From Enterobacteria phage mEp390: DNA of 40,029 nucleotides. The stretch is taken from the sequence record NC_019721.1; one strand, 5' to 3'. The position numbers and the translations under genes are program-made. The notes beneath the pieces were generated by a model. That model searched no databases. It was not told the origin of the DNA and was given only the letters and a program-made list of their open reading frames with translations. Below, piece by piece: positions 20,396 to 23,579 of this stretch; position 1 is the stretch's first letter, and every line of letters begins with the position of its first letter.

Positions 20396-20662
20396 TCACA
20401 GGCCAACCTGGCGAACGGTCGGGGACTCAGAAACCAGCCATATGTCGGACTCTTCAAACATTTCTTCCAGCATGCGGTTTAGCTTTTCCCGATCGCTTTT
20501 ACTTGCATCGCTATTCAAGCCGTTCGCCTGCATCGGCTTCACCTTCACTTCGGCATCAGGGAAAATCTGATGAACCCGCTTCGTCAGCTCGGCCAGAATG
20601 ATCTCTCTGGCCCCTTCGAGCCCCGCAACATTACGCTTGTCATATACCAGTTCAACAAACAT
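20396..20662 (-). CDS. dinI: DinI-like DNA damage-inducible protein
   Basis: 88-aa ORF with FPD and ESxDxWLVSE motifs matching DinI as recalled; AGAGGG RBS; LexA box about 45 bp upstream. Confidence 0.8.
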   Translation of the reverse strand: MFVELVYDKRNVAGLEGAREIILAELTKRVHQIFPDAEVKVKPMQANGLNSDASKSDREKLNRMLEEMFEESDIWLVSESPTVRQVGL

Positions 20663-20706
20663 TGCTAACCCTCTTGCCTAACTTGATCTGTAATCACAAA
20701 AATACT

Positions 20707-20724
20707 ACTGTATATGCATACAGT
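20707..20724. promoter_or_regulatory. LexA binding site (SOS box)
   Basis: ACTGTATATGCATACAGT, a perfect 18-bp palindrome of CTGT-N8-ACAG type, between divergent dinI-like gene and ORF 20749. Confidence 0.8.
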
Positions 20725-20748
20725 CAATAGTCCAGAGAGGGCGCTCTT

Positions 20749-20988
20749 ATGCCTCGTCAACTTGATATACGTGCAGCCTTTTTAGCGGCCATACAACAGA
20801 ATCCTAAGGGATATCTTTGTTTGAACACTGACAAATTCATCACTGAATTGCGCTTTAGGAATTGGCATTTCAGCCAGGCAGATGCCAATGCCTGGATTAA
20901 GAGATACCAACCAGACTTTGCTGATAAGACGACGGATGGAAGCGATAACCGTTACTGGATCTTGCGTAATATGGGGAGGGTTTTCTGA
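20749..20988 (+). CDS. hypothetical protein, first gene of putative SOS-controlled operon
   Basis: 79-aa ORF with GAGAGGG RBS, 25 bp downstream of LexA box; stop overlaps next start (ATGA). Confidence 0.5.
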   Translation: MPRQLDIRAAFLAAIQQNPKGYLCLNTDKFITELRFRNWHFSQADANAWIKRYQPDFADKTTDGSDNRYWILRNMGRVF

Positions 20989-21308
20989 TGGGCTTTCCTT
21001 CACCTGCTATGGATTACCAGGAACAGCGGTTAACCATAGATCTGTTATGCGGAATTGATGGGAACTGCAGGGTAATAGAAACATCCTGTGGTTGGGCAGT
21101 GATTAACATTGCTCTAAGGCCAGAGCAGGGAGATACGCTACTGGTAAGAATGGATAACAGGAACGAGTTTGCAAAGCTATACGGGGCGGCATTGATAACT
21201 GAAGATGGTGAAGCGATAGAAGGCGACGCGCTGGATGATGTGGAAGTGTTTGGTGTGCTAACGCATAGTCTTAACCGCGTTTGTAATGATGATTGCCCAG
21301 CCATTTAA
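20988..21308 (+). CDS. UmuD'-like S24-fold protein lacking N-terminal tail and probably the catalytic dyad
   Basis: begins M-GFPSPAMDYQEQR, matching the UmuD segment just after its Cys-Gly cleavage site as recalled; C-terminal VEVFGVLTH resembles UmuD DVFGVVIHV; no SGDSM motif seen. Confidence 0.5.
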   Translation: MGFPSPAMDYQEQRLTIDLLCGIDGNCRVIETSCGWAVINIALRPEQGDTLLVRMDNRNEFAKLYGAALITEDGEAIEGDALDDVEVFGVLTHSLNRVCNDDCPAI

Positions 21309-21367
21309 GGTATGGGTTTAACCACCATTTTCACTTCACCCAAAGTCGATTTACGGTACTAAAAACT

Positions 21368-21651
21368 TTCGCCATTGTGACATTTTGATAACGGTAAGCT
21401 ATTGATTACTTAGATCATAAAATTATGAATTAATGGCGAAAAATAATCGTATATGTTTGATTTTATTAGATAACACGCGTGATTTAAAATCCCTCGGCGT
21501 TCGCGCTGTGTGGGTTCAAGTCCCACTCCGGGTACCATGGGAAAACTAGAATAAAATCAATGATAAGCAGTGTCGTATAAACCACCGAAAGGTGGTTTTT
21601 TATTGTGTTTTTTTCGCCATTCGCCATTGTTTCGCCATTCGACTTCGCCAT
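21368..21651. other. attP region: tRNA-Leu 3' core (21481-21537) flanked by TTCGCCATT arm-type repeats
   Basis: 57 bp matching the anticodon-loop-to-CCA portion of an enterobacterial tRNA-Leu(UAA) as recalled, with no 5' half; TTCGCCATT at 21368, inverted at 21432, four direct copies 21613-21651; integrase adjacent. Confidence 0.65.
21580..21602 (+). terminator. intrinsic terminator downstream of tRNA-like core
   Basis: AACCACC-GAAA-GGTGGTT hairpin followed by T6. Confidence 0.6.
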
Positions 21652-21663
21652 AGAAAGAGGGCA

Positions 21664-22674
21664 TTACTGCCCCCCAACCACCGGTACTACAGATATTTTG
21701 CGGTTGTATCTTGCAGTCTGCGAAGCATTTTTGTGGCCTGATATTTCTTGTTTCTCATGCAGCGTACCTTCCAAATCAGATATCCCTTTGGCTTTCAGGT
21801 CATGGAAAGTAAAGTCAAATTCGATCTCAGGGAATTTCTCAGCGGCTAACTTTTTCGCCTTCATCCACTGCGCATTAAAAGCATCTCGTGTATATCTCGA
21901 TCCTGATGGCTGGTGAATAACATACATGCTAACCATTCCTTCTTTGAGAGGTAAGGAATCAGCCAAGGAGATTGCACGCCTTAAGCGATCGGTCCATTTT
22001 TTGATTTGACTCACTGCTGTCTTACTTTGCTGAATCATGATTCCTTCATGAAGAAGCTGCGTTTTTTTTAGATCAAGAATATCCCCCTGTCTAGCGCAGC
22101 ATAGATAGGCAACCTCCATAGCGATTTTTACAGGAATAGTTGCAATACTGTACAGAGCATCATATTCGTTATCAAAAACGTAACGAGTCCTGGCCTTTTC
22201 TTTAAACTGCTTTACCCCTTGGCAAGGGTTCATCTTCACTTTTCCACGCTCATATGCCCACCTGAATACCCTCGACATAAACGCTTTTTCTCGGTTCGCC
22301 TGAACTCTGCTCTTAACCCCCCTCTTATCCATATACTTTCTGATGTGCTCCGGCTTAATGTTTTCTGGTTTCATTTTGCCGAAAACGACATTTACCTTTG
22401 AACCATATTTCCGGTAATCCTTTCTGGTTTCTGTTGCCAGATCATGAAAGTCACCAGAGTTAAAAAACTCTTCGCAAAGAGCATGAAAGTTGGAACCAAC
22501 CTTTATATCGTTGATGAAGTTTTCATACGCTGCCCAGACCTGAGACTTTGTGAGATCGAGGTTGCACAATCTCACAGTTCTCCCGTCTGGCGTTCTGAAC
22601 TCATAAGCAGATTTGCCTCGACGCACGCGGGGCGGCATCCAGTTATCTTCTGGGTTTTTGCGGATTCTGGGCAT
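21664..22674 (-). CDS. int: tyrosine-type site-specific integrase
   Basis: 336-aa ORF with C-terminal HxxR and RY catalytic-region motifs (HDLKAKG, ARYNRK); adjacent to att core. Confidence 0.88.
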   Translation of the reverse strand: MPRIRKNPEDNWMPPRVRRGKSAYEFRTPDGRTVRLCNLDLTKSQVWAAYENFINDIKVGSNFHALCEEFFNSGDFHDLATETRKDYRKYGSKVNVVFGKMKPENIKPEHIRKYMDKRGVKSRVQANREKAFMSRVFRWAYERGKVKMNPCQGVKQFKEKARTRYVFDNEYDALYSIATIPVKIAMEVAYLCCARQGDILDLKKTQLLHEGIMIQQSKTAVSQIKKWTDRLRRAISLADSLPLKEGMVSMYVIHQPSGSRYTRDAFNAQWMKAKKLAAEKFPEIEFDFTFHDLKAKGISDLEGTLHEKQEISGHKNASQTARYNRKISVVPVVGGQ

Positions 22675-22916
22675 TACATGTCCTTAAAGTTTGGTTCTTC
22701 TTCCTCTGGATTGTTCACTACCAGCTTGAGGCCTGCAGGGTTAGTTACATGATCCCATGTAGTTCCTGGCCTGCCGTCTTTTCGTGGCACGAAAAACACA
22801 CCGCTTTCTTTCAGTGCTCGGCACTGAAGGGAAGGGCGACGATAACCAGTAAGCTGATATAGGTCATCAGGGGTAAGAAAACGTTGGCTTTGTCCGCTCA
22901 TCGTATAGCTCTCCAC
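22674..22916 (-). CDS. xis: excisionase-like protein
   Basis: 80-aa ORF immediately upstream of and overlapping int; Xis-like sequence by eye. Confidence 0.55.
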   Translation of the reverse strand: MESYTMSGQSQRFLTPDDLYQLTGYRRPSLQCRALKESGVFFVPRKDGRPGTTWDHVTNPAGLKLVVNNPEEEEPNFKDM

Positions 22917-22934
22917 TCAACCGGCTGCACCCGG

Positions 22935-23213
22935 CTATCTCTTATAGAAAATGCATGATGAACAACCACCACGGAGCCCATCATTGCAGGTACGACATCT
23001 TTTTGTTTCGGTGTAATAGAGCTGGTGGACCATTTCCTTTGGCATGAGAACCGGCATCGGCACTCGGATAACCAGCTTTTTGAGTCTGTCTATCTCAGCT
23101 GCGTGCTCCAGCGCGATATCCTTCCAGTCCTGCGCTTCGGCCATCCACCAGGCTACATCTGCTTTAAGGCGGCGCAAGCGCCGCTGTTTGAGTTTGCTCA
23201 CCATGGCAGCCAC
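22935..23213 (-). CDS. hypothetical early protein
   Basis: 92-aa ORF, co-oriented with early-left operon. Confidence 0.4.
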   Translation of the reverse strand: MAAMVSKLKQRRLRRLKADVAWWMAEAQDWKDIALEHAAEIDRLKKLVIRVPMPVLMPKEMVHQLYYTETKRCRTCNDGLRGGCSSCIFYKR

Positions 23214-23270
23214 CCAAGTTGCTGCAGGGCACCGATTGCCAGCAGCACGAACATAATCGCGTCGAATGGG

Positions 23271-23579
23271 TTAGGCATGGCGTTTTCTCTCTGCCGGTAA
23301 TGGAGGGATATCCATCCACATGATAACCCTCACAATAACACCTTCATTCCCACGCCACTCGTCAGATTCGCAATCGTAGCAGGATGTAATCGCAACGCCG
23401 TAATCTGTCTGGACCAGGTAAATCCCGTTACTTTCAGGTTTAATTTCTGATGCATCATTCCAGATAGGAATCGGGCCATTGCGGTATATCTCCTGAAGCT
23501 CCCGTGCCATGTGGTAGGCGATGTGCCTGCGCCCAAAATCACGAACAACCTCTTTGAGCCTTTCATGGGAAATTGTCAC
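23271..23579 (-). CDS. hypothetical early protein (DUF551-like)
   Basis: 102-aa ORF, overlaps next gene stop; lambdoid early-region family by recollection. Confidence 0.45.
   Translation of the reverse strand: MTISHERLKEVVRDFGRRHIAYHMARELQEIYRNGPIPIWNDASEIKPESNGIYLVQTDYGVAITSCYDCESDEWRGNEGVIVRVIMWMDIPPLPAERKRHA

Follow-up and report, generated by a model that had tools for sequence, protein, structure and literature searches.

A probable lambda-type attP with a leuZ tRNA core beside the integrase gene of an HK97/HK022-like phage

Phage lambda integrates through a complex attP of about 300 bp that lies beside int, in which repeated arm words flank the core on both sides and an IHF-consensus site is found in the P arm; its integrase has three domains and a small gene in the xis position overlaps the start of int. 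All of these features recur at the locus described here. The lambda core matches an intergenic attB between gal and bio, unlike the core considered here, which is the anticodon region of a tRNA gene. An anticodon-loop class of tRNA-gene-integrating elements was reportedly defined by Williams in 2002, and Haemophilus phage HP1, which integrates at a tRNA-Leu gene, belongs to this class. HP1 is said to use an integrase of another family, whereas the target of the present locus is leuZ of Enterobacterales. Elements of this kind form class A of the Islander collection, where attP holds the anticodon stem-loop through to the 3′ end and beyond, the tRNA is rebuilt next to int and a displaced 3′ fragment is left at the far end (PMC4383910), an arrangement shared by our locus. 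The tRNA-dependent lysogeny of mycobacteriophages is comparable in that a tyrosine integrase targets an essential host tRNA and the lysogen depends on a phage contribution; there, attP and attB share about 10 bp, the tRNA is not rebuilt and a separate phage tRNA gene compensates (PMC10865867), whereas the attP described here rebuilds the tRNA gene itself and the phage DNA has no tRNA gene. The leuZ gene is already known as an insertion site of integrative elements in Escherichia coli (PMC7067040).

The closest systems are those of Escherichia phage Fostie, Pectobacterium phage ZF40 and the enterobacterial leuZ prophages; their integrases are 61–97% identical to the one described here, and they share the leuZ core and the attP layout with the present locus. 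The 125-bp core of Fostie has one base different from ours, while the arm words of Fostie (TTCATAATA) and ZF40 (TTCCTAATAT) are different and the N-terminal domains of the integrases have diverged; one paper on the ZF40 genome mentions neither attP nor a tRNA target. Both a lambda-type complex attP and a tRNA core of the anticodon region are textbook matters. What is new here is limited to this particular integrase/attP pair, to the description of its family, in which a single architecture occurs with at least four arm words, and to the points made below on 3′ETS, on base 71 and on Lys294.

The DNA analysed, which we refer to as the window, is a stretch of 40,029 nucleotides. Its leftmost 19 kb are 92–94% identical to mEp506, LMessi and HK542, and the alignment with HK542 starts at base 1 and ends at the final base of HK542. 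The window is a complete cos-to-cos lambdoid genome of the HK97/HK022 type. At 21360–21655 it very probably carries a complete lambda-type attP, through which this temperate phage would integrate into leuZ, the last gene of the glyW-cysT-leuZ operon; such a site is an ordinary and well-understood kind of element. A preliminary description had seen an attP architecture beside int, and this was confirmed, with int (21664–22674) adjoining. The same description took the window for an excised or circularised form rather than a prophage, which agrees with the cos-to-cos alignment and with the contiguity of P arm, core and P′ arm that identifies an excised or virion form. If the window were instead an integrated prophage, the piece of tRNA would be host flank or an attL or attR junction. 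Host-like sequence is present, as this would require, and nothing further speaks for it; against it, the site has no flanking host genes, its two arms and core form one contiguous stretch, alignment with HK97-like phage genomes that have cos ends extends from the first to the last base of the window and an intact tRNA is absent, and we consider a prophage to be almost certainly the wrong reading.

The int region had no DNA-level match among the records of a phage collection by megablast, which needs about 85% identity, and a search with int and attP together returned no close relative, its matches being the 125-bp core of Fostie and short stretches of core. An integrated copy of exactly this phage was found neither among 5426 complete E. 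coli genomes nor in IMG/VR, where the closest integrases are 97% identical. Directly to the left of attP lie two plus-strand ORFs (20749–20988, 79 aa, and 20988–21308, 106 aa) for which a Pfam search gave no match; ORFs of the same size occupy the same position beside attR in the prophage of E. coli 2017C-4173W12.

The core of the proposed attP is a piece of tRNA gene. Positions 21481–21537 on the plus strand (GATTTAAAATCCC...GGGTACCA) hold the 3′ part of leuZ tRNA-Leu(UAA), from the anticodon stem to the CCA, with no 5′ half; they align to the annotated tRNA-Leu of glyW-cysT-leuZ in 5416 of the 5426 complete E. coli genomes and are identical to K-12 leuZ at 55 of 57 positions. Identity to leuZ begins at 21481, two bases ahead of the anticodon loop, and reaches the CCA and beyond, so that the host-like block measures 125 bp (21481–21605) and runs on past the CCA for 68 bp to about 21605. 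The preliminary description had reported a 57-bp match to the 3′ part of tRNA-Leu(UAA), in which the identity was correct and the extent too short, the match continuing through the 3′ trailer and the operon terminator. It had also seen no 5′ half and expected no intact tRNA, and ARAGORN indeed finds no tRNA gene at this locus or anywhere else in the window; a search of 20500–23500 against Rfam (E≤1) gave no tRNA match either. Two other Rfam matches in this search were rejected as chance, these being a weak one to Bacilli-1 (E 0.26) and one to sroH (E 0.86, 15.8 bits against a gathering score of 80 bits) that consists of the terminator and scattered identities.

The two differences from K-12, T at 21511 and A at 21525, are the two sides of a single T-stem pair (C-G to U-A). 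A reading of this pair as a phage-specific compensatory change was considered and dropped, as it is a native allele in the host-derived attR halves of other enterobacteria; an allele identical at 57 of 57 positions is present in such host-derived halves (IMG/VR loci L115 and L126). When the left half of K-12 leuZ was joined in silico to the right half from the window, the attL product contained a fully paired, intact tRNA-Leu(taa) of 87 nt, and neither the reciprocal product (attR) nor attP contained a tRNA. Across the E. coli collection, the leuZ 3′ block has 7091 matches in 5416 genomes and therefore many strains carry an extra leuZ 3′ fragment; leuZ appears to be an often-used insertion site in this collection.

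The preliminary description had predicted the host integration site from the tRNA core and had proposed that the junctions of integrated relatives be inspected. All of the integrated relatives examined sit at leuZ, with the rebuilt tRNA at attL and the displaced 3′ fragment at attR. An attL of the TTCGCCAT type at leuZ is found in only five of the 5426 complete E. coli genomes, four of which match the int region of the window at about 79% nucleotide identity. In one of these strains, E. coli 2017C-4173W12, the integrase protein is 87% identical to that of the window. Its attL reads uvrC-pgsA-tRNAGly-tRNACys and then the host leuZ 5′ half, followed by a T stem, trailer and terminator loop that are not of the E. 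coli type, the TTC[G/A]CCAT repeats and int. Its attR has on the phage side tail genes, the two small ORFs also seen in the window and a P arm with direct and inverted TTCGCCATT, and on the host side a T stem, trailer and terminator of the E. coli type followed by yecA. E. coli GDSC2BY4G has an attL built in the same way. When one genome was scanned for each species, 12 loci were returned, 11 of them with flanking DNA, and in all 11 the int match lies about 110–140 bp from the tRNA-Leu(taa) of a Gly-Cys-Leu cluster; these loci come from seven genera (Citrobacter, Kluyvera, Pseudescherichia, Enterobacter, Mangrovibacter, Rouxiella and Erwinia) and from two Enterobacteriaceae without a genus name. 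IMG/VR added 16 further attL junctions at leuZ and three attP forms, with integrases 84–97% identical, and a search there for the P-arm/core pattern found 30 loci, mostly attR junctions with the same P arm. The junction foreseen in the preliminary description is the one found in integrated relatives, and leuZ is very probably the integration site of this phage.

The observed junctions also bound the crossover. On the left the limit is the first mismatch with leuZ, at 21480, and on the right it is position 21511 in the T stem, where the E. coli lysogens have the phage base in attL and the host base in attR; exchange therefore falls within 21481–21510 (plus strand), a stretch identical to E. coli attB. 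This interval begins with the final two bases of the anticodon stem's 5′ strand and continues through the loop TTTAAAA (21483–21489) and the 3′ side of the stem into the variable arm. In ZF40, uninterrupted identity with attB begins one base further to the right, nearer to the loop. Strand exchange would most likely take place across the 7-nt anticodon loop, the crossover being bounded to 30 bp. Among the islands catalogued by Islander, 2083 of 3919 are centred on the anticodon, the commonest sublocation within tRNA genes (PMC4383910). The 1836 others of the 3919 belong to the class with a crossover at the T loop or at the junction of T stem and acceptor (PMC4383910), and the attP homology described here spans that part of the tRNA too. 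Against a crossover there, attL has the phage version of the T-stem pair, trailer and terminator loop and attR has the host version, so that exchange occurred to the left of 21511 in these lysogens, which are relatives of the phage with an integrase compared at 87% identity; identity to attB moreover starts exactly in the anticodon stem. A crossover in the T-loop region is thus very improbable, and the anticodon loop is preferred.

Two IMG/VR sequences have a mixed composition. One (L038, 4.1 kb) joins a P arm of the Fostie type to a P′ arm and integrase of the window type. The other (L117, 11.2 kb) is a tandem array at leuZ that starts with attL and a truncated int, continues with a P-arm/core/P′ junction and a second int and then has a Fostie-like P arm on a host-type trailer. 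Together they suggest exchange between elements via the shared 125-bp core, or small satellite-like elements.

The core is flanked on both sides by short repeats. Exact copies of TTCGCCATT occur five times, at 21368 (+), 21432 (−), 21613 (+), 21620 (+) and 21631 (+); all five fall inside 272 bp within attP and there are none elsewhere in the 40 kb, where 0.62 would be expected per window and none of 100 shuffles reached five. A further copy at 21644, TTCGCCATA, has one mismatch to TTCGCCATT. The preliminary description had counted six repeats, one direct and one inverted to the left of the core and four to the right, and this layout stands with the qualification that the fourth right-hand copy is the mismatched one and that the first two (21613 and 21620) overlap by 2 nt. 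To the left of the core is the P arm (21360–21480), in which the direct site P1 (21368–21376, plus strand) lies 113 bp and the inverted site P2 (21432–21440, minus strand) 48 bp left of the core start. Between them, at 21395–21407 on the minus strand, is an IHF-consensus site (AATCAATAGCTTA = WATCARNNNNTTR), one of only three matches to this pattern in the 40-kb window, at which we infer binding of IHF. To the right is the P′ arm (21613–21652, plus strand) with its four sites, the last of which ends 11 nt before the int stop codon (21664–21666). Relative to the core start the six sites are thus found at −113 (direct), −48 (inverted), +132, +139, +150 and +163. In lambda the P′ sites are not so placed: here a tRNA 3′ half, a spacer and a terminator intervene and put them about 130 bp away from the crossover, and they number four, two of them overlapping. 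The overlap leaves no room for full occupancy of both these sites in the usual manner. The arm word itself also differs from that of lambda. No clean IHF consensus was found in the interval between the core and the P′ arm.

These positions are conserved. In a comparison of P arms from IMG/VR and E. coli, 27 of them distinct, column conservation begins near 21360, and to the left of about 21360 the relatives share no sequence. The P1 pattern TTC[G/A]CCATT is found at the same offset in 27 of 27 of these arms, P2 is present in all 27 when one variable base is allowed, and 26 of 27 have the IHF-consensus match at an unchanged position, whereas the P-arm sequence around P1 and P2 varies in large part between relatives. 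Nineteen close relatives retain the P′ sites at +132, +139, +150 and +163; a subgroup of E. coli prophages, which is more distant, has three P′ sites. The copy at 21613 is absent from that subgroup and was for this reason considered as a 7-bp duplication specific to the window, a reading that was dropped as the 19 closest relatives have it.

In relatives with integrases 61–64% identical the layout is kept, with a direct copy near −113, an inverted copy near −48 and tandem copies just past the terminator, and the arm words differ from that of the window (TTCATAAT, TTCCTAATAT and TCCGAAGATG). Fostie has TTCATAATA twice past the terminator and inverted at −47 (L003, 3141–3162), ZF40 has TTCCTAATAT twice past the terminator, inverted at about −50 and direct at about −113 (L130, 517–538), and the prophage of E. 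coli 23GD11002 has TCCGAAGATG twice past the terminator (L132, about 1742–1770). The conserved positions, the co-variation of the word with the integrase lineage and the lambda-like Int fold (see below) together support the repeats as arm-type sites of the integrase. They might instead bind an excisionase, a repressor or a host protein, or be functionless products of slippage, and the two overlapping copies are what a 7-bp tandem duplication would give. Such origins are at odds with the fixed offsets on both sides of the core in dozens of relatives, with a word that shifts with the integrase lineage while positions stay constant, and with the lambda-type N-terminal domain predicted in the integrase. 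The lambda excisionase sites are found in the P arm only, unlike the TTCGCCAT repeats, most copies of which are in the P′ arm. A role of the repeats apart from Int is accordingly judged improbable.

The integrase that would read these sites is a tyrosine integrase of 336 aa encoded at 21664–22674 on the minus strand (Pfam PF00589 and PF22022). Lambda Int is its best PDB match by sequence and also by profile comparison (hhalign probability 97%), and the two are 16–19% identical by structural alignment. An AF2 model built on an alignment of 55 homologues had a pLDDT of 84.9 and replaced a single-sequence model that was unusable (pLDDT 41). Its top Foldseek match was lambda Int in full length (1z1b_A, E 5e-14), with 344 columns aligned; the 75–356 construct, which is without the arm-binding domain, had 282, about 60 fewer. 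The N-terminal domain, which returned nothing meaningful in Pfam (E≤10) or PDB (E≤10) sequence searches, is modelled with strands at 17–19, 23–27 and 33–38 and a helix at 43–58 (pLDDT 85–89), so that a separate domain of β-β-β-helix form, the putative arm-binding domain, is confidently predicted. In the catalytic part, R195, K218, H291, H314 and Y323 align with lambda R212, K235, H308, H333 and Y342. Five of the six residues of the Arg-Lys-His-Arg-His-Tyr signature and the PF00589 fold are therefore present, and in place of the second catalytic arginine (Arg311 of lambda, in the HxLR motif) there is Lys294 (FHDLKAKG), which is invariant in 55 members of the family. The catalytic signature thus appears to be not fully canonical, which is a further difference from lambda.

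The start of int is overlapped by a gene of 80 aa (22674–22916, minus strand) with a DUF4224 domain (Pfam PF13986, E 2.7e-15). By Pfam it is no homologue of lambda Xis; genes in the same position beside int carry an excisionase annotation in Fostie and ZF40, and the DUF4224 protein is a putative excisionase by its gene position. Around the int stop codon (about 21653–21675), AGAAAGAGGGCATTACTGCCCCCC is conserved in relatives, and on the minus strand it could form a GGGCA-GTAA-TGCCC hairpin followed by a T-rich run. It is a possible candidate for an int terminator or processing site, and the hairpin was not listed by the terminator scan.

From this anatomy a working of the site can be proposed, which none of the observations contradicts. 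Int is predicted to contact the region of the anticodon stem-loop with its core domains and the TTCGCCAT repeats with its small N-terminal domain, and thereby to bridge arm and core sites in a bent attP, probably with the help of IHF in the P arm, where two opposed repeats flank the IHF-like bend site; the P′ arm would contribute four repeats. Strands would be exchanged within 21481–21510, most likely over the 7-nt anticodon loop of leuZ, the exact positions of cleavage being a matter of conjecture. In the integrated state, host DNA would provide the operon promoter and the 5′ half of the tRNA, and phage DNA the tRNA 3′ half, the 3′ETS-leuZ spacer and the operon terminator; the displaced host copies would end up at attR on the far side of the prophage, at a distance of about 40 kb.

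The 68 bp past the tRNA deserve separate treatment. Work by Lalaouna in 2015 is said to have found that 3′ETS-leuZ sponges RybB as well as RyhB. In E. coli, the spacer between leuZ and the terminator is 3′ETS-leuZ, an RNA that RNase E cuts out and that base-pairs with RyhB (PMC6191717, citing Lalaouna 2015). The stretch at 21538–21605 (plus strand) corresponds to it by alignment with the DNA downstream of E. coli leuZ, lying directly 3′ of the leuZ part and ending at the intrinsic terminator of the operon, as 3′ETS-leuZ does. It contains a block complementary to RyhB and RybB (AAGCAGTGTCGT, 21565–21576) and the terminator hairpin found by the terminator scan (21579–21598). With verified sRNA sequences, the duplex predicted between the window copy and the RyhB seed has −21.8 kcal/mol, a value that none of 1000 shuffles reached, and that of the E. 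coli copy −27.2 kcal/mol, the window duplex being the weaker because a second RyhB block (AAGCAAT), present in the E. coli copy, is missing; for the RybB seed the window copy has −20.3 kcal/mol (reached by 4 of 1000 shuffles) and the E. coli copy −19.9 kcal/mol. The hairpin is kept in 12 diverse phage-borne copies with one compensatory change of an A-U to a G-C pair, and in ZF40, whose trailer is otherwise different, the RyhB-complementary block GCAATGTCGT is kept. A literature search gave nothing that ties leuZ prophages to the 3′ETS sponge.

This pattern suggests that the block is maintained for restoring tRNA 3′ processing, the sponge and termination, the expression and function of the phage-borne spacer being presumed here. 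Frequent resampling from hosts could give the same picture. Alternatively, 21538–21605 may be a passive leftover from an imprecise excision long ago and serve neither phage nor lysogen, given that homology past the tRNA end is common in tRNA-gene elements and that the sequence resembles alleles in host-derived copies. A mere remnant fits less well with the presence of trailer, hairpin and T run before the P′ sites in all members examined, down to an integrase identity of 61% (ZF40), with the compensatory change in the stem or with the RyhB-complementary block retained even in ZF40; in a lysogen, moreover, this is by construction the sole copy joined to the operon promoter. We regard the remnant as unlikely. 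The stronger proposal, that the attP block is a host-matched functional cassette by which phage alleles replace the leuZ 3′ half, the 3′ETS-leuZ sponge and the terminator in the lysogen, is itself put forward tentatively and is doubtful at present.

A single base bears on the matching of phage and host. When the 125-bp core is compared with the 20 most similar cores, 21532 (plus strand), which is tRNA position 71 in the acceptor stem, always differs and is the sole difference in eight; it is G in the window and C in all 20. Base 71 pairs with position 2, which the host supplies, and the 2:71 pairing is perfect in 29 of 29 attL junctions read, with 16 G2 hosts carrying a phage C71 and 13 C2 hosts (E. 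coli included) a phage G71; these junctions are related, and their count is no independent statistical test. Because of this pairing, the window appears to be fitted to C2 hosts such as E. coli, with its nearest relatives in G2 hosts. Fostie, which is recorded as an E. coli phage, has C71, and its lysogeny in E. coli at leuZ would be predicted to create a C2-C71 mismatch.

For the phage itself, these results fix the leuZ integration site and the likely host range of lysogeny of an otherwise unannotated lambdoid phage, and they define the ends that prophage copies will have. For the family, the use of at least four different arm words on a single architecture amounts to a natural series in which to study the reading of arm DNA by the N-terminal domain, and provides pairs of integrase and attP with a common attB. 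Prophages at leuZ necessarily exchange the host 3′ETS-leuZ and terminator for phage alleles, which is relevant to work on this regulatory RNA in lysogenic strains. Should the proposal of a host-matched cassette be true, base 21532 alone would help to decide which hosts tolerate lysogeny, a sponge allele without the second RyhB block could shift the buffering of RyhB and RybB, and this would be lysogenic conversion through a non-coding RNA.
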